A DNA stretch of 63,869 bases, the filler included, from an uncultured bacterium (GTDB taxonomy: Bacteria > B130-G9), in NCBI GenBank assembly GCA_965372715.1. It is 9 parts of 6 records of this genome, joined end to end, with 100 filler letters (N's around TTAATTAATTAA, not from the genome) between each part and the next. Parts side by side here need not be neighbours in the genome. Positions count along the whole stretch, not along the records: positions 37,973 to 63,869 come from CBDVDH010000054.1; 8 more parts are not named here. One strand, written 5' to 3'. This document shows, piece by piece, positions 49,994-63,794 of this stretch. The translations under genes and the position numbers were made by a program. Below the pieces are notes generated by a model that did no database searches, was not told the DNA's origin, and saw nothing but the letters and a program-made list of their open reading frames with translations. Position 1 is the first letter of the stretch. Each line of letters starts with the position of its first letter.

Positions 49994-50428
49994 CTATCGA
50001 TTCGCTGAGGCAAGATAGCGCGCGTTGAGCCGGGCGGTGGCCCTCATGAGGGCAACTTCTGCACGCCTGACATCGATGTCTCCAGTGCCCCTTCTAGCGC
50101 TATCCAGCCTCTTCTTGGCTTTATCCCGTGCTTCCTTTGCACGCCCCTCTGAAATCGAGGCAGCGCTCTCGGCTGTCTCTGCCAGAATGATGACTCTGTC
50201 CGGAATAACCTCAGCAAAACCCGCACTGACAGCAAAGTAGCGCGTTTCCTCTCCGACCTTGTAGGACAGGACCCCCGGCCTCAAGGAAGTGAGGAACGGC
50301 GTGTGCTCGAAAAACACATCAAAGTCGCCCTCAGCGCCCGGTATGCTGACCTCGTCAACCTGCTCGAACAAGAGATGCGCCGTCGGCGTGACTATATCAA
50401 GCGAGAGCTTCTCAAGCTGTTCTTCCAA
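49994..50428 (-). CDS. atpC: F1 ATP synthase epsilon subunit
   Basis: LDIVTP, IPGAEGDF, HTPF, SAGFAEV, IILAETAE. Confidence 0.95.
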   Translation of the reverse strand: MEEQLEKLSLDIVTPTAHLLFEQVDEVSIPGAEGDFDVFFEHTPFLTSLRPGVLSYKVGEETRYFAVSAGFAEVIPDRVIILAETAESAASISEGRAKEARDKAKKRLDSARRGTGDIDVRRAEVALMRATARLNARYLASANR

Positions 50429-50490
50429 TTGCTACTCCCTTGCTCTGCCCATTTTCATGCATCATGCCTGCGCAACGGCATCGCGCTCGC

Positions 50491-50653
50491 GTAGGGGCGG
50501 TGCTTGCCCCGCCCTTCTCCAATGTGACCGACTATGAAGGGCGGGGCAAGGAGGCTGAGACATAAGTGGCCGCCCGCTCAGTGTAGGGGCAATCGCCCCG
50601 CGGTTGCCCTTTACGATCAATAAGATAGGGCAGGCACGGTGGCCAGCCCCTAC
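50491..50653. repeat. REP cluster (about 4 units) between atpD and atpC
   Basis: GTAGGGGCGGTGCTTGCCCCGCCCT; AGGGCGGGGCAAG; GTAGGGGCAATCGCCCCGCGGTTGCCCT; GGGCAGGCACGGTGGCCAGCCCCTAC. Confidence 0.8.
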
Positions 50654-50683
50654 AAGACGCAAATGCCCTTGCATATTTGTCAT

Positions 50684-53039
<2,356 letters not shown>

Positions 53040-53055: not shown

Positions 53056-54564
53056 CTAGTGGAAGAACTGCTTCTTGAACTCATCAAGGCATCTCTTTAG
53101 GCTCGCCTCAATCTCCTCCGTAACCTCTTTCTTCTCTTTGACTGCCTCAAGAACATCGGGGTGCTCGGCGTCCATGAACCGATACAGCTCCTGCTCAAAA
53201 CGCTTTATCTCTTCTACCTCAATGTCATCGAGGAGGCCGTTGATCCCAGCGTAGATTATCAGCACCTGCTTCTCTGTGGGCAGAGAGATGTATTGGTCCT
53301 GTTTTAGGACCTCAACCATTCGCTCACCTCTCATGAGCTGATGTTGAGTCGCCTTGTCGAGTTCAGACCCGAACTGGGAGAACGCCGCTACCTCACGATA
53401 CTGAGCGAGGTCGAGCCGCAACGTTCCCGCGACCCGCTTCATCGCCTTCACCTGAGCGTTGCCGCCAACCCTTGAGACCGAGATGCCGACGTTAATCGCC
53501 GGACGAACACCCGAATAGAAGAGGTTTGATTCAAGGAATATCTGACCGTCGGTGATTGAGATCACGTTGGTCGGGATATACGTAGAAATATCCCCGGCCT
53601 GTGTCTCAATGATTGGGATGGCCGTGAGAGAGCCGCCGCCACGCTCATCGTTGAGCTTTGCTGCGCGCTCCAGAAGCCGCGAGTGGAGATAGAACACGTC
53701 CCCCGGGAATGCCTCCCGACCGGGCGGCCGCCGCAGAAGAAGAGAGAGCTGTCGATACGCTTGAGAATGCTTCGATAGATCGTCGTATATTACGAGCGCA
53801 TGCTTGCCATTGTCCCTGAAATACTCCCCGATCGCACAGCCGGCGTAAGGCGCGATGTATTGCAGCGTCGCCGGCTCGCTCGCGCTGGCTAAGACGACCG
53901 TGGTGTAGTCCATCGCGTCGTATTCCTGAAACGTTTTCACCACACGGGCGACGGTTGAACGCTTCTGGCCTATCGCCACGTAAATGCAGATGACATCCTC
54001 GCCCTTTTGACTCAGAATCGTATCGACAACGACTGCCGTCTTGCCAGTCTGCCTGTCCCCGATCACGAGCTCACGCTGGCCGCGGCCGATTGGAATCATC
54101 GCGTCGATCGCCTTGATCCCAGTGTGAAGCGGCTCCTTGACGGGCATCCTATCGACGACGCCGGGCGCGATTCTCTCGAGCGGGCTGAAGTTCTTGGCGC
54201 TGATCGGGCCCTTACCGTCGATCGGCTGGCCAAGCGCGTTGACGACGCGCCCAACCATCTCCTCACCAACCGGCGTCTCGGCTATCCTCTTCGTCCGCTT
54301 GACGAGGTCGCCCTCCTTGATATATCGGTCCTCACCAAGAAGAACGGCGCCAACGTTGCCCTCCTCCAGATTAAGAACCATGCCCCTGATATCGTGAGGA
54401 AATTCAAGCATCTCCCCGGCCATCGCGTTGTCGAGGCCGTAAATCCGCGCGATGCCGTCCCCGACCTCGATGACGCGGCCAACCTCAGCAAGCGTTACCT
54501 CGGTCGTGTAGTTCTCGATCTGTTCCTTGATGATCGAGCTGATCTCCTCAGGCTTTATTCGCAT
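53056..54564 (-). CDS. atpA: F1 ATP synthase alpha subunit
   Basis: [31 protein letters not shown]. Confidence 0.99.
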
Positions 54565-54606: not shown

Positions 54607-55164
54607 CTAACCACGGCCAGCCTCCAATAAGCCGCCGATACGCCCCTTAACTTTCATGAGCTCCGACTCAAGCGTCGCGTCGAATAGCCAATCGCCGATC
54701 CTAACCGTGAACCCTCCAAGAAGTGAATTATCCTGCCTCTGCGTCAGCAAAACATCGCCTCCCAAGAACTCGCCCAGACGCTCCCGCAACCTCTCTACGT
54801 CCTCAGCTGGCAGCTCAATAGGAACCAACAGCTCACCGCGAATCCTGCCGAGACGGCGATCGGCGTCTCGACCAAATTGAGCCACTATCTCGCCGATCAA
54901 CGAGATGCGAGAGTGTCGAAGCAAAACGTGAAAGAAGTTGAACAGAACCTGCGGAGGCTCGAGCCTGCTAAGCACCGCATCCAAGAGCTTCTGTCGAACG
55001 TGAAGCTCCAGCGTATTGTTATTCAGAGTATTGCAGAACTCCTGTGACTCGCGCACCAAATTACCCATGGCACAAAGCTCCTCGCGAATCTCGTCCAGCT
55101 TGTCCTCAGGAACTACCTCACAAAGCGCCTTGGAGTAGCGCCTCGCCAAGAGGGCCTTTTTCAT
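54607..55164 (-). CDS. atpH: F1 ATP synthase delta subunit
   Basis: ARRYSKAL, SLLGGFTVRIGDWLFDAT; position in operon. Confidence 0.93.
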   Translation of the reverse strand: MKKALLARRYSKALCEVVPEDKLDEIREELCAMGNLVRESQEFCNTLNNNTLELHVRQKLLDAVLSRLEPPQVLFNFFHVLLRHSRISLIGEIVAQFGRDADRRLGRIRGELLVPIELPAEDVERLRERLGEFLGGDVLLTQRQDNSLLGGFTVRIGDWLFDATLESELMKVKGRIGGLLEAGRG

Positions 55165-55763
55165 GCGCGCCTCCCGATTGCGGACATCCGAGCCCTGATC
55201 AGAGCGAGTTGAATCTCGGGTGTAAGCTTCTCTAGAATCCGCGACCGAGCCAAATCCACACAGCGTCCGGCCATTTCCTCACGTATCTCCTGCCGAATCT
55301 CACGCTCGCGACCCTCGAGGGTTACGTGGGCCTGCGCCACGATGTTACCCGCACGCTCCTTGCCATCGTCTATCAGCCCGTCTCGCTCCATATCGCCCAG
55401 CTCCCGCGCTCGCGCAAAGAGCTGCTCGATCTCATCATCAACCCCGTCGATCGCGCGCTGCGCGTCCTCACGCTCCGCTCTCGCCTCCTCAAGCTGAGAC
55501 TTTGTGCTGGTCAGCAACTCGTCAACGTCGGCGATCTTAGAATCAATTATCGCAAGCAGGGGCTTCCTAAGAAAATGGTAAATCAGTCCCACGAAAATCG
55601 CGAAGTTGACGAGCTTCATCGTCTCAGGATACGGATGATCGGCCACCCTGAGCACAAAATTGATTATCAGGTAGGCCCCAAGAATATAGACGACCGTCAT
55701 CGAACGCCTGAGGAACCCTTTAGAACGCTCCTGCTTCCTGTTTTCGCTATCCTGCATCGTCAA
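55161..55763 (-). CDS. atpF: Fo subunit b
   Basis: VNFAIFVGLIYHFLRKPL followed by a long charged helix. Confidence 0.88.
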   Translation of the reverse strand: MTMQDSENRKQERSKGFLRRSMTVVYILGAYLIINFVLRVADHPYPETMKLVNFAIFVGLIYHFLRKPLLAIIDSKIADVDELLTSTKSQLEEARAEREDAQRAIDGVDDEIEQLFARARELGDMERDGLIDDGKERAGNIVAQAHVTLEGREREIRQEIREEMAGRCVDLARSRILEKLTPEIQLALIRARMSAIGRRA

Positions 55764-55765
55764 TC

Positions 55766-56197
55766 TCAGATGTTTACCGCAGACAGTATTCTTGAGACGA
55801 TCTGGTCCGCCATGGAGCCTATCTCCTCATCCTTCACGGCGAGAAGCGACTCTCGCTTCGCAGCCAAGAGCTCCTTCTCGCCCTCGGAAACAACTCGCTC
55901 CGACTCGTCCATCGCTTCATCTATCAAACGCAGACGCTCAACACGACCGTCCCTTATCAAGCCATCTCGAAGCTTGATCCCCTCTTTTCGCGCAGCGCGG
56001 ATGCGGCTTGAGTATTCCTCGCGCATCTTCCGCGATTCGGCCTGAAGCTTCTCGATCTCCTCCTTGCGACCGGCAATCAGACCGTCTCGCCGGTCTATAT
56101 GCCTCATCAAAGGTTCCCATAGGACCCTCTTCAAGACGAAGACCAAGAGCAAAAAATTGATAGCCTGAATGACTATCGTAAGGTTTATGTCAACCAT
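55766..56197 (-). CDS. Fo subunit b' (second b paralogue)
   Basis: QAINFLLLVFVLKRVLWEPL..RR followed by a coiled coil. Confidence 0.88.
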   Translation of the reverse strand: MVDINLTIVIQAINFLLLVFVLKRVLWEPLMRHIDRRDGLIAGRKEEIEKLQAESRKMREEYSSRIRAARKEGIKLRDGLIRDGRVERLRLIDEAMDESERVVSEGEKELLAAKRESLLAVKDEEIGSMADQIVSRILSAVNI

Positions 56198-56250: not shown

Positions 56251-56508
56251 CTAGCCGCCGACCACGAAGATCAGAAGCAGCGCAACCACCAGCGAGTATA
56301 TCCCGGTCGACTCGGAGACCGCCTGGCCAATGAGCATCGTTCTGGTCAGGAGGCCCGCCTCTTTGGGCGCCCGAGCGATGCCCTCACACGCACGGCCGGC
56401 CGCATAACCCTCGCCAATGCCGGGGCCTATCGCGCCAAAACCCATGCAGATGCCCGCTCCTAGGAGCGCGGCTGCCTTGATGATAGTAGTAGAAGTTACT
56501 TGATCCAT
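56251..56508 (-). CDS. atpE: Fo subunit c, single hairpin, Na+-binding type (85 aa)
   Basis: GAIGPGIGEG (E33) and GQAVSESTGIY (E66/S67/T68/Y71); GAGGAG RBS before ATG 56508. Confidence 0.95.
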   Translation of the reverse strand: MDQVTSTTIIKAAALLGAGICMGFGAIGPGIGEGYAAGRACEGIARAPKEAGLLTRTMLIGQAVSESTGIYSLVVALLLIFVVGG

Positions 56509-56595
56509 AGCATCTCCTCTCAAAACCGTTCTAGATTGACGACAAGACGCCGCCAAATAAGGGCAACAGAACCCATGAATACACAGACTCCAAAA

Positions 56596-57558
56596 TCAAA
56601 CCACAAATAGCAAAAACAACGCAACAATCAACGAGCCGATAGCGGGCGATTGCGCAACTGCCTGACCAATAAGCATGACCCTCATCACCACAGAGCTAGT
56701 CCGCTCGTTGATCCGAATAGCTGTGCAGGCCGAGGCTGCGGGCATCCCTGTCCCAATTCCCGCGCCTATTGCGCCCATTCCCATCGACAGCCCGGCGCCC
56801 AGGAACGCCGCTATCTTCACGATACTGGCGCCATCGCCGTGCGCAAACATCAACAGGAAGGCGATAACCAACGCAAAAATGGCCGAAGTCTGAGTAACCG
56901 CCTGACCGATAAGCATCATCCCGAGGACCTGGCCCCGAACTTCCTCGCGCCTCGCGACGACGGAGCAGGCTGCCCCACCGGGTAGGCCCCCTCCAATGCC
57001 GCTTCCAAAGGCCCCAAAGCCCATCGCTATTCCTGCTGAAAGGAGCCCAAACGCCTTCTCCAAACCGCCGGAGAAGGCCGAGTAGAGCAGTATGAACGCC
57101 ACCACGAGCGCAAATATCACGGGCGTCTCCGCAACGGCCTGACCCACGAGCATCGTCCCGGTCACCTGACCGCCAATTGTGGGACGCCTCGCCACGCCAT
57201 CGCACGTCCGACCCGCGCAGTAGCCAACGCCAATCGCGACGCCAAATCCGGCGACGCCGACCGCTATCCCGGCGCCCATGAGAGCTGCCATGTTCAGCAC
57301 CGCGTCGCCCTCTAGCCCGACATTCGTGCTGATCATCAGAACTGCGATTACCAGAGCAAAAATGCCCGACGTCTCCGTTATCGCCTGGCCGATCAACATT
57401 GTCTTGACAAGCTGACCGGAAGCCTTTGGTTGACGGGAGATGCCGAGCGCGGTCTGCCCCGCGGCGTAACCCTCACCGATGCCGGCGCCTATCGCGCCAA
57501 ACCCCATGCAAATCCCGGCCGCGAGATACTTGACGGCCTCTGCCCAGAAGACTTCCAT
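56596..57558 (-). CDS. atpE: Four-hairpin (8-TM) Fo subunit c, 320 aa
   Basis: Four tandem ~80-aa c repeats: MLIGQAITET, MLVGQAVAET, MLIGQAVTQT, MLIGQAVAQS; lies between atpB and the single atpE. Confidence 0.93.
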   Translation of the reverse strand: MEVFWAEAVKYLAAGICMGFGAIGAGIGEGYAAGQTALGISRQPKASGQLVKTMLIGQAITETSGIFALVIAVLMISTNVGLEGDAVLNMAALMGAGIAVGVAGFGVAIGVGYCAGRTCDGVARRPTIGGQVTGTMLVGQAVAETPVIFALVVAFILLYSAFSGGLEKAFGLLSAGIAMGFGAFGSGIGGGLPGGAACSVVARREEVRGQVLGMMLIGQAVTQTSAIFALVIAFLLMFAHGDGASIVKIAAFLGAGLSMGMGAIGAGIGTGMPAASACTAIRINERTSSVVMRVMLIGQAVAQSPAIGSLIVALFLLFVV

Positions 57559-57573
57559 TACTACCTTTAGATT

Positions 57574-58257
57574 CTAATCCGAACGAACCGCTACAGAAGT
57601 GTAGGTCAAGAACAGCATTGTGAACACGAACGCTTGAACTGAACCCACAAATACGCCGAAGAAGCCATTCAGAAGTATCGGCACGACGAGGAACATCAGA
57701 AGGTGGGAAACAACGATTATGATTATCGCTCCACCCATGATGTTGCCGAAGAGACGGAATGAGATCGATATGACCTTTGCCAGCTCGCCGACAACATTGA
57801 GCGGCATCATAAAGAAAATCGGCTGGAAGAACTCCTTTACGTATTCCATGACGCCCTTGGCCCGAACCCCGGAGACGTGCCAGATGAAAAAGCCCATCAC
57901 ACCAAGCGAGAGCGGCGTATTGATGTCCTTGGTCGGCTCCTCAAGACCGGGGATGATCCCAATCCAGTTGGACAGGATAAGGAAGATAAACAAGGTCCCG
58001 ATTAGCGGAAGATAGGCCCTATCGTCGCGCGCCAAAGCATCCTCTACGAGGCCATCAAAGAACCGGGCCAAAAGCTCGACAACCAGCTGCACACGCCCAG
58101 GAACCTCCTTGAGCCGCCTGGCAATCAGAACCGCGGACACGATAATGATGGCCATCACGACCCAAGTCATGAGCACCGTAACATAGTTGACGGTGCCAAA
58201 CGGGGAGCCCGGTTCGCCAAACAATTGTATCTGGGCTACGTGCCCTATCTCTTCCAC
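57574..58257 (-). CDS. atpB: Fo subunit a
   Basis: VPGRVQ, PTKDINT, ISISFRLFGNI (conserved Arg), QAFVFTML. Confidence 0.95.
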   Translation of the reverse strand: MEEIGHVAQIQLFGEPGSPFGTVNYVTVLMTWVVMAIIIVSAVLIARRLKEVPGRVQLVVELLARFFDGLVEDALARDDRAYLPLIGTLFIFLILSNWIGIIPGLEEPTKDINTPLSLGVMGFFIWHVSGVRAKGVMEYVKEFFQPIFFMMPLNVVGELAKVISISFRLFGNIMGGAIIIIVVSHLLMFLVVPILLNGFFGVFVGSVQAFVFTMLFLTYTSVAVRSD

Positions 58258-58263
58258 GCTGCG

Positions 58264-58719
58264 CTAAACCTCCCCAGAAAAGACACCAGAGCGCCTCTTC
58301 GAGCTCGCGACGAACCGACTTATCACAGGTTCGTAAAGGATAAGTATCACGTTGCAGAGAAATATCCCCGCAACGACAGACGCGAAATCGATCCACGAAC
58401 ACCGCGCCCCGATCAAGAGCGCCAAACCGTACAGCAAAAACCTGGGCAGAAACCACTTGAACGAGAAAGCCGCCGCGCTGGTCGATCTCCCAATTGAAAA
58501 AAGCATGAGCGACTTCTTGGCCGCGAGCGAAAACCCCACGATGCTGACAACCGACCCAAGCCCAAAACCTAGAGCAACGGCCCAATAGCCAAGTAGCGCG
58601 CTTGAGGCGCAGATGACAAGAGCGGAACCGGCGGCGATTCGGATCACGCGCCGCCTGAAATCGAGCATGTATTTTACTTGTTCGTCTATCTCAGGTAACC
58701 TTTTCAACCAATCTGTCAA
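58264..58719 (-). CDS. atpI: ATP synthase protein I (UncI-like, 4 TM)
   Basis: Four hydrophobic segments; directly upstream of atpB. Confidence 0.7.
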   Translation of the reverse strand: MTDWLKRLPEIDEQVKYMLDFRRRVIRIAAGSALVICASSALLGYWAVALGFGLGSVVSIVGFSLAAKKSLMLFSIGRSTSAAAFSFKWFLPRFLLYGLALLIGARCSWIDFASVVAGIFLCNVILILYEPVISRFVASSKRRSGVFSGEV

Positions 58720-59003
58720 TCGTCTTTCGTTTCATCGCCTTCACCAGCAGCCGCTGGAGGCACAAATCCCTTCAGAAGTACCCGGTATACGTTCCAGAAA
58801 GCTGCGCCAATCCCGAACAATATACCAACAATCAGGAAAGTGTGGCCTGTGTCAAGCCACCTGTCAACGTAGAATCCCGCCGCAAAGCCGACGCCAATGG
58901 CGATGACCATCGTTAGGCCGATCTGCGTAACAAGCGAGATACTCCTGAAGAACTCCTTCGCAGCGTCGTCCTGGGGCCGCCTCACCTTTCCGGCACGAGG
59001 CAC
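58716..59003 (-). CDS. AtpZ/AtpI family (ATPase gene 1) membrane protein
   Basis: TQIGLTMVIAIGVGFAAGFYVDRWLDT..F.IVGILFG; first gene of the operon. Confidence 0.85.
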   Translation of the reverse strand: MPRAGKVRRPQDDAAKEFFRSISLVTQIGLTMVIAIGVGFAAGFYVDRWLDTGHTFLIVGILFGIGAAFWNVYRVLLKGFVPPAAAGEGDETKDD

Positions 59004-60080: not shown

Positions 60081-61877
60081 GTGATAGCCATGAAATTGAA
60101 ACTCACCTTGATCGTCACAGCCATGATCGTCATAACCGCTTTGTCTGTCTTCGCTTGGAATAACATCCTGACTTGCAAGCCCCCGCCAAATGAGCGACCG
60201 ATGCCTGTCCATAAGGAGGAGGCAGACGCTGCCGACCTGCTGATGTTACATCCAAGAACACTGCCTTCCCCGCGCTCAGATGGCTTTCAGCTTATGGGCA
60301 GCAATGAATTCGTGCAAGTCAACTACGACGGTTTTGGGGGGGATCAGGATGATAGGAGACACAGATGCCAGACATTCGCCATCCAGCAGTTCACCCGGAG
60401 CGTGGGAAACGAAACGAAGACGGAGCTCTACGTGGGAGTAGAAGCTGGTGCCAGCAACCGTTCGCAGGTCTGGCGCAGCGATTACCCTCCGGCTCCCGAA
60501 AGCTGGTTTCAGGTGGCCAAGGACGGTTTTGGTGATCAATACAACCAGCACATTGATTCTGCAGCTGTCTTCAAGGACAAGTTTGATCAGACCAAGCTAT
60601 ACATGGGCGTGTGCAATGAGGAGACGGGCTGTCAGGTTTGGTGCACCGACGGGTCAGAGGACACGGGTAACGAGCCGTATCTCAAGTGGACCAAAGTGGC
60701 TCAGAACGGCTTTGATAGCGATAACGGCAACGCCTATTGTATGGCCGTGTTCAAAGGCTACGTCTATGTTGGCACGTTCAACACGAACACTGGGTGCGAG
60801 GTGTGGCGGAGTAATAACCCTGCGACAAGTACAGGTAGTTGGGAGCCGGTTAATTACGGGGGCTTTGGCAGCGCGGACGACAATGAACCCGACAACATCT
60901 GCGTGATGGATATGATCGTCTTTAACGGCCAGCTCTACGCGGGAACGTGGAATACGGACCATACCCAATCGACGGTAGGCCGCATATTCCGCTACACTGA
61001 AAATGGCAAGGATTGGACGGAGGTCTGGGATGGGAACGTTGGGGGCAATTGGTACGCTATAGCTGCCCGGTGTTTCGCGGAGTTCGAGAACGAGCTGTAC
61101 GTTGGCATTTTCCATGATGCGGGTTCAGGCGATGACATTTTCAAATATGAGGGTGGCTCTACTTGGACGGGTGTTTGCATTATAGATGGCACGAATGAAA
61201 GTGACGTCATAGACCTGATCAACTTCTATGACATGAACGGCGAGGACCCACCAGCGAGCTTCCTTTACGCCACTACTGGACAGGGCGACCTGGACTTGGT
61301 CTGGCGCAGCAGCAACGTGACAGACTGGGTTGAGAGAAGTGAGAATGGATTTGGGGACGACAACAACGATAGTCTATTCTGCTTCGGAACCTTTGGTAAG
61401 CGTCACGACTTCAATGCACTCTATGTCGGCACCTGGAATGACTCCGACGATACGGGAACCGGCACGGAGATATGGCAGACCCCCATGACTGAGACTGATT
61501 GCACCTACATCACGCTCGAGTCGTTTGAGGCGGTCGCGCGGAAGGACGGCTCGATACTACTGCATTGGGTCACCGGGACCGAGATCGGGACTGCCGGGTT
61601 CGACCTCTATCGGAGCGAGTCCCCTGACTTCGAGTCTTTTGAGAAGATCAATCCAAGAATGGTCGAGCCAACTGGGTCACCTGTCGCGGGCGCCGAATAC
61701 AAGGTGCTCGACAGGTCCGTCAAGCCCGGAACGCTCTACTATTACTTCTTGGTCGAGATAGACGTCAACGGCAAGATGTCCACTTTCGGCCCCGTTCAGG
61801 CCAGGGCCAGGATTCCGGTTCCCGAGGTCTTCGAGATGTATTCCGCCATCATCCAGATGGACACGTTCGGCGTGTAA
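60081..61877 (+). CDS. Secreted beta-propeller protein with C-terminal FN3/Ig-like domain
   Basis: Signal peptide; repeats F...LYVGT.N...GC.VWRS...W..V...GFG; terminal ITLESFEA..ILLHWVTGTEIGTAGFDLYRS module. Confidence 0.8.
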   Translation: MIAMKLKLTLIVTAMIVITALSVFAWNNILTCKPPPNERPMPVHKEEADAADLLMLHPRTLPSPRSDGFQLMGSNEFVQVNYDGFGGDQDDRRHRCQTFAIQQFTRSVGNETKTELYVGVEAGASNRSQVWRSDYPPAPESWFQVAKDGFGDQYNQHIDSAAVFKDKFDQTKLYMGVCNEETGCQVWCTDGSEDTGNEPYLKWTKVAQNGFDSDNGNAYCMAVFKGYVYVGTFNTNTGCEVWRSNNPATSTGSWEPVNYGGFGSADDNEPDNICVMDMIVFNGQLYAGTWNTDHTQSTVGRIFRYTENGKDWTEVWDGNVGGNWYAIAARCFAEFENELYVGIFHDAGSGDDIFKYEGGSTWTGVCIIDGTNESDVIDLINFYDMNGEDPPASFLYATTGQGDLDLVWRSSNVTDWVERSENGFGDDNNDSLFCFGTFGKRHDFNALYVGTWNDSDDTGTGTEIWQTPMTETDCTYITLESFEAVARKDGSILLHWVTGTEIGTAGFDLYRSESPDFESFEKINPRMVEPTGSPVAGAEYKVLDRSVKPGTLYYYFLVEIDVNGKMSTFGPVQARARIPVPEVFEMYSAIIQMDTFGV

Positions 61878-61981: not shown

Positions 61982-63388
61982 TCAATCTGTTCGTTTCCGA
62001 ACTGCCCACGCCTCAGCGCCAGCAGACAGCAGCAGCACAACTGCAAACACAAGCAAGAAGTTCATCGGGACACGGTGGCGCGCGGTCCCTACGTTAACAG
62101 CCGAGGACACCAGGCATGAATAAATCTGCCACGTTACAACCAGCAGGAACATTCTCCGCAAAGCCGGGGCCTTCTCAGAAGAGAAGGCCATGCGCTTCGC
62201 AAACGCGAGCTGAAGCGCAATTATGACGGGTATCATAAGAAACAGCGCGGACGCTACGAACTCAAACAGGCTCCAGACCAGCTGGATCAGTCTCGAGTTC
62301 CCGAACGACAGCTTCGAGACGGACGGGAACCAGTAATTGACGCAGGCATGGCCGACGACTGCAAGATAATGCATGGGCGATGCCAGTATCAAACGTATCT
62401 GCAGCCGGGTCATATAGCTGCACTGCTCCCCGATGCCCATTCCGGTAAGCTTTCTAAGCTCAGGCTCAGCCTGCCAAATATACATCAATCCGGTGTGGGA
62501 GCTGCCCCTTGCAGCAAGGCTTTCGTCCCGGTATTTGATCAAGAGCTCCCGGACCTCAGCGTGAGAATCCGGTATCCTCTCAAGGACAGGAACAGTTCTT
62601 GTGGCGAGAAACTGACCTTGCATGGTGCTCAGACCGAACCAACCAAAACGGACATAATTGGCGAAACTCCAACCGAGCACGAATACAGCGAAAGGTAGGA
62701 GAAACGCGGCCGTCATCTTGAGCATTTCCCCGCGGCGGAATCTACGTTTTCCGCGCACAAGGAGAGCAACTAGGCAGAAGACAAGGGTGACCGGCGAAAG
62801 CAGCATGAACGTTGGACGAACAAGCGCGACAATAGAGCAACACAGCCCCGCAATCCAAACGGGAACGTTGGCGAGGCTGTTTGGCTGACTTACACTATAC
62901 TCATCTTCTCTGAGGAACAGGTAGCAGCCCAAGAACCCAAGTGAAAGAAGCAGCTCCGCGGGCGCCTCAGTCATAATATACGCACAGTGGTCGGCGTAAG
63001 GTGGAAGCCATAGAACAAGCGCGGCAGCGATAGGAGCAATCATCGGCAGCCCCAGGTCTCGAATGACGTAAACTACTACCAGCACCACGACACCGTGCAT
63101 CAAGAGATGCGCAAGAAGCAGCAAGCGAGAGTTCGAATCCAGCGTTGTTACCCCTGTCAAGGCGGGTGTAAGAGAAGCCAGGGGGACACGGTGAGGGTTC
63201 GTCGGGAAACGTAGGTTAGCGATGTTATGTGCATTAACAAGATAGCCTTGTGTGTCGGCTGTGACGCGTGCGTACTTCCAGACTCCCCAGTAAACCAGGG
63301 CAGGCAATAGCACGAGAAGCACAACGGATACCAGCTTAGCGCGCCTGCTGAGTGCGCGATTTGCCGGTAGGATACCATCATTTAGCAC
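61982..63388 (-). CDS. Polytopic membrane protein, GT-C/PMT-like glycosyltransferase
   Basis: TADTQGY after the first TM, IMTE, LVRP, ARHRVP; GTG start after AAAGGAG. Confidence 0.7.
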   Translation of the reverse strand: MLNDGILPANRALSRRAKLVSVVLLVLLPALVYWGVWKYARVTADTQGYLVNAHNIANLRFPTNPHRVPLASLTPALTGVTTLDSNSRLLLLAHLLMHGVVVLVVVYVIRDLGLPMIAPIAAALVLWLPPYADHCAYIMTEAPAELLLSLGFLGCYLFLREDEYSVSQPNSLANVPVWIAGLCCSIVALVRPTFMLLSPVTLVFCLVALLVRGKRRFRRGEMLKMTAAFLLPFAVFVLGWSFANYVRFGWFGLSTMQGQFLATRTVPVLERIPDSHAEVRELLIKYRDESLAARGSSHTGLMYIWQAEPELRKLTGMGIGEQCSYMTRLQIRLILASPMHYLAVVGHACVNYWFPSVSKLSFGNSRLIQLVWSLFEFVASALFLMIPVIIALQLAFAKRMAFSSEKAPALRRMFLLVVTWQIYSCLVSSAVNVGTARHRVPMNFLLVFAVVLLLSAGAEAWAVRKRTD

Positions 63389-63794
63389 AACGACTCCTTT
63401 CTGGGAAAGTCGGACCCTAGCTAAACTAATCACCTCAACGTGCAAGAAGATACGTCAACCTACAGGGTGCGTCAACCCGAGACCATATCTACGGAGACCC
63501 TACCTGGAATCTAGATGCAAACCCTCAGAAGAGTTTTCGCAAGTGCTGGAAGGGTGTTTCTGAGTAAGTCCCTGTCTGGGTGATAACTGAAAGACGTCCA
63601 AGTGGGATCGTGCCGAAGGGAAAGTCACCTGTCGTTTCCCTCGAAGGCAATTAGCAGATATGACGGCAAGACTCGACAGTCCCAGAGATCCATGCAGAAC
63701 TAACGCGGCGCAGACGGGGCGGGGGATCGTGCCGTTTCCACCAACAGAAAGCCTCTGAAGCAGACCATTACGCAAACTGCTCTGCCGGTCGGCC

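Follow-up and report, generated by a model that had tools for sequence, protein, structure and literature searches.

A four-hairpin c subunit in a bacterial F-type ATP synthase operon as a candidate component of a hybrid sodium rotor

In a 63,869-nucleotide stretch of DNA (hereafter the window; filler letters are included in its length) from an uncultured bacterium of the lineage B130-G9 (GenBank assembly GCA_965372715.1), a complete F-type ATP synthase operon carries, between the gene of subunit a (atpB) and that of a single-hairpin c subunit (single c), a gene encoding a 320-residue c subunit with four tandem helical hairpins (c4). We put the probability at roughly 0.6 that c4 is a working rotor subunit and part of a hybrid sodium F1Fo rotor with a low ion-to-ATP ratio, representing an extended version of the two-hairpin c1 subunit of Acetobacterium woodii. 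From the anatomy, conservation, family and predicted fold of c4, which are reported below, we infer its co-assembly with single c, the stoichiometry, the coupling to sodium and the direction of work (synthase or pump).

The four hairpins of c4 and the neighbouring single c

The c4 protein scored 172 bits against PF00137 (ATP-synt_C), compared with a curated cut-off of 24, and its four hairpins could be aligned with each other and with single c without internal gaps. The helix-1/helix-2 ion-site pairs of the successive hairpins are E29/E62, V111/E144, G190/Q223 and T270/Q303, each 33 residues apart, and the cytoplasmic loops read RQP (residue 42), RRP (124), RRE (203) and INE (283). With 320 residues, four hairpins and eight predicted helices, c4 departs from the single-hairpin size (about 70-90 residues); it also departs from the pattern of one helix-2 carboxylate per hairpin, having Glu in hairpins 1 and 2 and Gln in hairpins 3 and 4. 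The Gly-rich packing motif of helix 1 is present in all four hairpins. An earlier note, made from the sequence alone, had described this four-hairpin open reading frame (ORF) between atpB and single c; ORF calls, PF00137 and residue checks confirmed it, with every named residue pair and loop at its place. The relevant features are as follows.

56596-57558, minus strand: four-hairpin c subunit (c4), 320 residues; four PF00137 stretches, E-value 2.7e-51
57313-57558, minus strand: hairpin 1, residues 1-82; E29/E62, T63-S64..F67, loop RQP
57076-57312, minus strand: hairpin 2, residues 83-161; V111/E144, T145-P146..F149, loop RRP
56836-57075, minus strand: hairpin 3, residues 162-241; G190/Q223, T224-S225..F228, loop RRE; without carboxylate
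56596-56835, minus strand: hairpin 4, residues 242-320 and stop; T270/Q303, S304-P305..G308, loop INE; without carboxylate
56509-56595, minus strand: spacer of 87 nucleotides between c4 and single c, with a strong GAGGAG Shine-Dalgarno sequence
56251-56508, minus strand: single-hairpin c subunit, 85 residues; PF00137, E-value 3.4e-18

The single c carries E33, E66, S67, T68 and Y71, the full set of the two-carboxylate sodium type, and fits the published rule E[STQ][STQ]xxY with Glu or Gln in helix 1. These five residues were invariant in all 23 single-c homologues taken from Fo clusters with multi-hairpin c genes. The F-type operon and the sodium signature proposed in the earlier note were thus borne out by Pfam and residues. 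The start of single c is most likely the ATG at 56508 (85 residues) rather than the TTG at 56556 (101 residues), because a conserved GAGGAG Shine-Dalgarno sequence lies upstream and the 23 homologues align from there; the earlier numbering E33/E66/S67/T68/Y71 already matches the 85-residue form. Among the loci of the window's family, single c is whole in the window, L001, L002, L008 and L010, and is cut by the locus end in L009. It has GAGGAG or GGGAG with an ATG start in 5/5 loci; the c4 gene has a weak AAGG/GGG ribosome site, with a TTG start in three of six loci. These translation signals would fit few c4 copies per many copies of single c.

As judged from its orthologues and repeats, c4 is neither an assembly artefact nor a decaying gene. 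Nothing was found in favour of the view that it is an artefact or a functionless, decaying tandem duplication, apart from its source being an uncultured organism, and we regard this view as barely credible. The segments coding for the four hairpins share just 57-61% identity in DNA and 33-46% in protein, with a repeat period of 237-246 nucleotides and no near-identical repeats; DNA identity this low makes a collapsed, expanded or mis-assembled repeat implausible. Moreover, c4 is intact in 6/6 genomes of the same family, which come from separate assemblies, at 73-96% identity. Homologues also lie on multi-megabase contigs, including one on a 9.6-Mb contig with the source name 'AtpE4 [Desulfosarcina variabilis]', which means that a cultured species appears to carry the gene.

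The ratio of nonsynonymous to synonymous substitution rates (dN/dS; Nei-Gojobori estimates over the six loci) was far below 1 in each hairpin. Between the window and L002 it was 0.09 at dS 0.22 (0.07, 0.08, 0.12 and 0.06 for hairpins 1 to 4, and 0.05 for single c), and between L009 and L010 it was 0.21 at dS 0.15. In the other pairs dS was saturated, with whole-gene dN/dS of 0.02-0.11 where computable and some values not computable. Overall, the per-hairpin values ranged from 0.02 to 0.34, and hairpin 1 had the lowest dN. E29, E62, Q223 and Q303 are unchanged in 6/6 loci. The low dN/dS and the invariant Q223 and Q303 uphold the earlier suggestion of selection over decay. The proposed E,E,Q,Q pattern stood for E62, Q223 and Q303 and not for E144, which is Glu in 4/6 loci and Ser in L009 and L010, while V111 is replaced by Gly or Asp in others. 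Because Ser or Gly takes the place of E144 in some members of the window's family, the "reduced" second site described in the earlier note is not a conserved feature.

Over a larger set of 32 four-hairpin proteins, the Glu pair is kept family-wide in hairpin 1 only, with E29 and E62 invariant (32/32). S304 of hairpin 4 is likewise invariant (32/32), and Q223 is at least 90% conserved. The loops of hairpins 3 and 4 depart from R-Q/N-P, yet they are conserved in the family as RRE and as INE, IND or IHE, respectively.

AlphaFold2, run on c4 with a 32-sequence alignment, predicted eight long helices forming four helical hairpins, with a predicted local distance difference test score (pLDDT) of 94.5 and a predicted template modelling score (pTM) of 0.90. 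The best solved structure by sequence was A. woodii c1 (4BEM_J, E-value 6e-26), followed in the PDB by the c11 rings of Fusobacterium nucleatum and Ilyobacter tartaricus (3ZK1 and 1YCE) as second and third best matches. By fold, the best Foldseek match was again 4BEM_J (E-value 2.2e-7, 37% identity), then two-hairpin V-type proteolipids. The analogy with A. woodii c1, drawn earlier from the sequence, therefore held for both sequence and fold. Solved chains span at most about half of the c4 model, and the query-normalised template modelling score (TM-score) reaches 0.46 at most.

A large family of multi-hairpin c subunits and its residue rule

A search of 5.8 billion proteins gave 2112 matches at E ≤ 1e-3 among 8000 candidates scored. 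The best 120 of the 2112 are about 305-325, 400-410 and 480-490 residues long, with source names including Coatesbacteria, Desulfobacterales, Desulfobacteraceae, Desulfarculaceae, Desulfosalsimonas and Thermodesulfobacteriota. We used the window's five hairpins to build a profile, divided these 120 homologues into hairpins with it and read the helix-2 residue of each hairpin. The patterns were EQQQQ in 56 proteins, EQQQQQ in 26, EQQQ in 13, EQQQE in 8, EQQQQE in 3 and QQQQQ in 2, together with EEQQ in 8 (the window's group), ESQQ in 2, EGQQ in 1 and one partial protein. A profile search of 1.84 billion cluster representatives gave 225 at E ≤ 1e-30. A multi-hairpin c was detected at E ≤ 1e-25 in 64 of the 151 genomes sampled from one Desulfobacterota class, the one to which a Desulfobacterales genome belongs. 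Of the 21 Desulfobacterota loci fetched, 20 have a single c with the motif E / E-S-T..Y immediately after the multi-hairpin gene; the exception is L035, arranged as c4, atpZ, a, c, where single c is still in the same cluster. On these alignments, c4 is one branch of a very large family of F-type c subunits with three to six hairpins, and not the one-off architecture that the earlier note had supposed.

The Desulfobacterota proteins are 40-47% identical to c4 over its full length, are annotated only as 'ATP synthase F0 subunit C', and share with it the hairpin classes and the neighbours (atpZ, a and a single c with E/EST..Y). They mostly follow E,Q,Q,Q(,Q,Q), with Q-T-P..F in the second hairpin and Q-S-T..Y in the last, whereas the window has E,E,Q,Q and ends on Q-S-P..G. 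Their module forms an additional Fo set located away from the F1 genes, unlike that of the window, which lies within the only, complete operon. The carriers G065, G057 and G117 also hold a conventional a+c module, whose c has Q..IESLCIY, and alpha and beta genes are absent from the 16-kb loci around their multi-hairpin modules. The two arrangements, atpZ-a-(multi-hairpin c)-c and atpZ-a-c, were seen in L034-L036 and L039-L041 (G065, G057 and G117; also G112 and G134). The window's atpB product is 50-56% identical to the a subunits preceding multi-hairpin c genes in Desulfobacterota loci and 32-33% identical to those of the Q..IESLCIY module. In these carriers the multi-hairpin module may be an alternative Fo, and the two modules may share one F1.

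In the published F. nucleatum structure, the sodium site lies between neighbouring c subunits: Glu32 and Glu65 come from one, and Ser66 and the Val63 carbonyl from the adjacent one, with Ser66 and Tyr70 hydrogen-bonded to Glu65 and Thr67 holding a water molecule (PMC3692424). Because sodium sites lie between hairpins in this way, counting sites per hairpin, as the earlier note did, is too simple. We counted half-sites in 119 of the best 120 homologues, dropping the one partial protein, with positions given relative to the helix-2 carboxylate. First hairpins have Glu in 117/119 and Phe at +5 in 119/119, never Tyr. The 362 internal hairpins have Gln in 351, Thr at +1 in 353 and Pro at +2 in 335. 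The 119 last hairpins have Gln in 108 and Glu in 11 at the carboxylate position, with Ser at +1 in 119/119, Thr at +2 in 115/119 and Tyr at +5 in 115/119. The N-terminal edge of a multi-hairpin protein would thus expose a Glu half-site and its C-terminal edge a Ser-Thr-Tyr half-site, each to be completed by a neighbour in the ring, with blanks between them. This rule fits ion sites shared by neighbouring hairpins and the published geometry, and the alignment sequence of A. woodii c1 follows it as well (ETS..F, then QTT..Y).

A maximum-likelihood tree was built from 75 hairpins of one- to six-hairpin proteins, with the five site columns removed (72 columns). All 35 internal hairpins fell on one side of a branch (support 94/75), and all 16 first hairpins on one side of another (83/85). 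Last hairpins were intermixed with single c subunits, and their grouping together was not rejected (approximately unbiased test, p-AU 0.66). The supports are only moderate because of the 72 columns; the split recurred in a quick tree that kept every column, with 98 in the Shimodaira-Hasegawa-like approximate likelihood ratio test (SH-aLRT). The first- and last-hairpin classes also hold two-hairpin proteins from other loci. The picture suggested by the tree is that an ancestral two-hairpin, c1-like protein grew by gaining internal hairpins and that the window protein is a member of this lineage.

Several other c proteins came up in the searches. The L022 locus has two single-c genes after its four-hairpin gene, reminiscent of the duplicated atpE2/atpE3 of A. 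woodii. In the Desulfobacterales genome G041, the multi-hairpin gene (L005) runs out of frame after about 2.5 hairpins, through a frameshift or a sequencing error, and having lost its reading frame it was left out as an example. Intermediate forms occur in other phyla: the complete operons of L003 and L004 encode a single c together with a two-hairpin c in which both Glu are retained, and in L012 a single c accompanies a three-hairpin protein of the pattern E,Q,Q. A second, remoter four-hairpin family (helix-2 E,Q,E,D, about 316-321 residues, 28% identical to c4) comprises L013, from the roughly 1.2-Mb genome G011, and 30 cluster representatives; in L013 the gene comes after that of subunit a, with no single c found next to it. 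As for relatives longer than 560 residues, the search gave one protein of 1020 residues at 28% identity. The polypeptides P0224, P0211, P0143, P0191 and P0153 (631-1139 residues; 8, 9, 11, 12 and 14 hairpins) keep nearly all Glu; P0153 has 14 repeats of 'I/EAL.Y', and P0191 has Gln solely in the first of its 12 hairpins. By their repeats, these 8- to 14-hairpin polypeptides, bacterial or archaeal, look like whole rings made as one protein.

A mixed rotor and its alternatives

In the mechanism we propose, the four hairpins of c4 would pack side by side like four ordinary c subunits, and c4 would co-assemble with several copies of single c into one mixed ring, each c4 replacing four single c. 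Each sodium site would combine the Glu pair of one hairpin with the Ser, Thr, Tyr and backbone carbonyl contributed by the hairpin before it. Hairpin 1 would then give a complete Glu half-site (E29/E62) to the preceding neighbour in the ring, and hairpin 4 would give a Ser half-site to the following single c, this being the predicted docking edge. Hairpins 3 and 4, with Gln for Glu, would form two consecutive ion-blind positions, and hairpin 2 would have a lone Glu in a poor site that is dispensable in relatives. Each c4 in the ring would remove two, functionally three, ions per turn and lower Na+/ATP; for example, an 11-hairpin ring with one c4 would need 8-9 ions instead of 11 per three ATP. 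The hybrid ring, its stoichiometry and the lowered Na+/ATP, all raised by the earlier note, are predictions.

The pairwise complex model of c4 and single c scored 0.68, compared with 0.00 for the best control; of 80 solved complexes, 58 attain the mark used for this score, as do 2 of 110 mismatched pairs. At least 98% of contacts were shared between the runs, and the pLDDT of the partner was at least 85. In the model, single c lies against hairpin 4 (residues 245-320), where residues 298-309 touch E33 and helix 1 of c. This predicted docking is the orientation foreseen by the half-site rule.

Several points weigh against this mechanism. The complex model may have passed through likeness only, because c-ring structures have already been solved, and it would probably dock any two c hairpins. 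The mixed ring, of whatever size and copy number, and the expression of c4 are predictions from sequence, and the putative sodium specificity is read from a motif. The last hairpin of the window's clade has neither Thr nor Tyr (QSP..G or A, 4/119), and as a consequence a site formed with the following single c would lack both residues in this organism, which does not fit a strictly preserved donor half-site. A ring of c4 only would satisfy the half-site rule equally well. By our own estimate, no ion-driven torque would be available while two to three ion-blind hairpins in a row move past subunit a; such a passage should be easy when driven by ATP and kinetically hard in synthesis, yet no other rotary-ATPase rotor gene set was found in these genomes.

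A question raised by these points is whether c4 and single c belong to one ring at all. They might instead be alternative rotors, with c4 forming rings by itself (e.g. three copies, 12 hairpins) and single c forming ordinary rings, so that the cell shifts between a low and a high ratio. The half-site rule would also hold if hairpin 4 of one copy met hairpin 1 of another, the second, separate a+c module kept by Desulfobacterota carriers shows that exchangeable Fo parts exist, and the apparent whole-ring polypeptides of 8-14 hairpins came from the same search. On the other hand, a single c accompanies the multi-hairpin gene in every locus examined (two of them in L022), and the contrast between the weak ribosome site and TTG starts of c4 and the strong site of c suggests that the two proteins are made in unequal amounts from one transcript. 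In addition, homomeric E,Q,Q,Q rings would carry about one ion per ATP, and the only characterised precedent, that of A. woodii, is a mixed 9:1 ring (PMC9171764). Taken together, we consider separate rotors unlikely.

Another explanation would give c4 a structural role: it could fix the ring size or the order of assembly, or dock the gamma/epsilon foot through its RRE and INE loops, with the loss of carboxylates simply tolerated. The loops of hairpins 3 and 4 are indeed divergent from R-Q/N-P and conserved in the family, atpI and an atpZ-like assembly gene accompany the module, and one protein covering four positions would break the symmetry of the ring. However, Gln occupies 351/362 internal hairpins within a fixed Q-T-P..F motif, and this near-universal Gln with its fixed motif indicates selection on the site itself rather than tolerance. 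A structural role would also be compatible with the mixed ring, and as a replacement for it we find it improbable.

Genomic setting, known rotors and meaning

The operon lies on the minus strand in the order atpZ-I-B-c4-c-b'-b-delta-alpha-gamma-beta-epsilon, as established by ORF calls and Pfam, and c4 has an F-type placement inside it, between subunit a and subunit b. The genes other than c4 and single c are listed below.

58716-59003, minus strand: atpZ-like gene, first of the operon, 95 residues; PF09527 (ATPase_gene1), E-value 1.3e-17
58264-58719, minus strand: atpI, 151 residues; PF03899, E-value 2.2e-4, 22.1 bits, just below the 25.1-bit cut-off; position kept in relatives
57574-58257, minus strand: atpB, Fo subunit a, 227 residues; PF00119, E-value 2.2e-49
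55766-56197, minus strand: b' subunit, 143 residues; PF00430, E-value 9.3e-16
55161-55763, minus strand: b subunit, 200 residues; PF00430, E-value 6e-12
54607-55164, minus strand: delta subunit, 185 residues; PF00213 (OSCP), E-value 1.3e-30
53056-54564, minus strand: alpha subunit, named from sequence and operon position
52125-53039, minus strand: gamma subunit, named in the same way
50684-52105, minus strand: beta subunit, named in the same way
49994-50428, minus strand: probable epsilon subunit, 144 residues, 255 nucleotides past beta; assigned by position and size only

L002 carries its alpha, gamma and beta genes in the same order as the window, at 97-98% identity. The gap between beta and the probable epsilon gene (50429-50683, 255 nucleotides) is unusually long. 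Two adjoining ORFs, at 60081-61877 (plus strand, 598 residues) and 61982-63445 (minus strand, 487 residues), have no Pfam match; by eye, the latter resembles a multi-pass membrane protein.

In four related genomes (83-96% complete), these 4+1 hairpins are the sole PF00137 matches, which makes them the only rotary-ATPase rotor gene set found there. Contig C43 of G002, one of the four, encodes a 586-residue PF00006 protein with a partial second one beside it, which could be A and B subunits of an A/V-type enzyme; no extra PF00137 match was found in G002. Rnf/Nqr-type subunit genes are present in three of the four genomes, and membrane pyrophosphatase in all four. The sodium-based energy metabolism of A. 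woodii has this setting as well. A 2026 paper reports that Rnf-dependent anaerobes often have several atpE copies.

The A. woodii ring, an F/V hybrid, contains nine single c and one c1 (PMC9171764). Like the c1 gene (atpE1; 4BEM chain J), the c4 gene lies between atpB and a single-hairpin c with the sodium motif, and both proteins have Glu in the first hairpin (E-T-S..F in c1; E62 in c4) and Gln in a later one (Q223 and Q303 in c4). Unlike c1, which has two hairpins, four helices and about 18 kDa, c4 has four hairpins, with two consecutive carboxylate-less hairpins instead of one and an additional second hairpin that bears Glu. In helix 1, the ligand is Glu in the window's c4 and Gln in c1, and the last hairpin of the window's clade lacks the Thr and Tyr that c1 has. 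Co-assembly and a 1:n ratio are known for A. woodii (PMC9171764), whereas c4 is known here from genes and a pairwise model. The window's single c resembles that of F. nucleatum, with its E32/E65-S66-T67-Y70 motif (PMC3692424); the F. nucleatum and I. tartaricus rings, in contrast, are homomeric with one site per hairpin, and the accessible text of PMC3692424 describes no multi-hairpin partner.

Gene duplication with loss of carboxylates lowers the ions per turn in V/A proteolipids (PMC9171764; bioRxiv 10.64898/2026.10.01.756066), of which Enterococcus hirae NtpK, yeast and mammalian Vo c, Pyrococcus c and archaeal 3- or 13-hairpin c subunits were compared. In these, by the rule given in bioRxiv 10.64898/2026.10.01.756066, Glu stands in the later hairpin and Ser/Thr/Tyr in the earlier one, an order that is reversed in c4; they lie in A/V-type operons with at most one blank between sites, and c4 lies in an F-type operon. 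On the reversed half-site order and the operon type, a V/A-type proteolipid was rejected. An N-ATPase was rejected as well: its operon is described as beginning with beta-epsilon and having no delta, and the window's operon ends with beta and epsilon and includes a delta gene.

In agreement with the earlier note, which knew of no characterised example, a full-text literature search (the main hybrid-rotor review and supplements lay outside it) turned up no account of bacterial F-type c subunits exceeding two hairpins, and the Desulfococcus multivorans genome paper does not mention the ATP synthase. An October 2026 preprint on rotary ATPase evolution treats F-type rings as mostly made of single hairpins, with A. 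woodii as the mixed case (bioRxiv 10.64898/2026.10.01.756066). The c4 family is thus apparently an extended, widespread and uncharacterised form of the hybrid-rotor subunit, of which an earlier written mention may exist.

Going further, we tentatively suggest, at somewhat short of an even chance, that subunits built from a Glu hairpin, n Gln blanks and a Ser-Thr-Tyr hairpin are a widespread bacterial device that puts ion-blind arcs of two to five hairpins into sodium F-type rings, giving the lowest F-type ion/ATP ratios (about 2-3); they would be a swappable Fo "gear" in Desulfobacterota, next to the conventional a+c module, and the cell's only rotor in the window's organism. The ion/ATP ratio of a rotary ATP synthase is generally taken to follow from how many c subunits its ring contains; to our knowledge, the only bacterial F-type exception so far is the A. 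woodii hybrid ring with its single blank position. Two adjacent blanks, and up to five in relatives, would extend the A. woodii principle far. If this is true, an F-type motor must run, and perhaps synthesise ATP, over an arc of about 65-100 degrees without a coupling ion, which would offer a natural test of Fo torque when consecutive rotor positions carry no ion. The finding would also bear on the tuning of gear ratios in anaerobes near the thermodynamic limit and in marine sulfate reducers that expel sodium, and an apparent cultured carrier, Desulfosarcina variabilis by its source name, opens the question to bench work.

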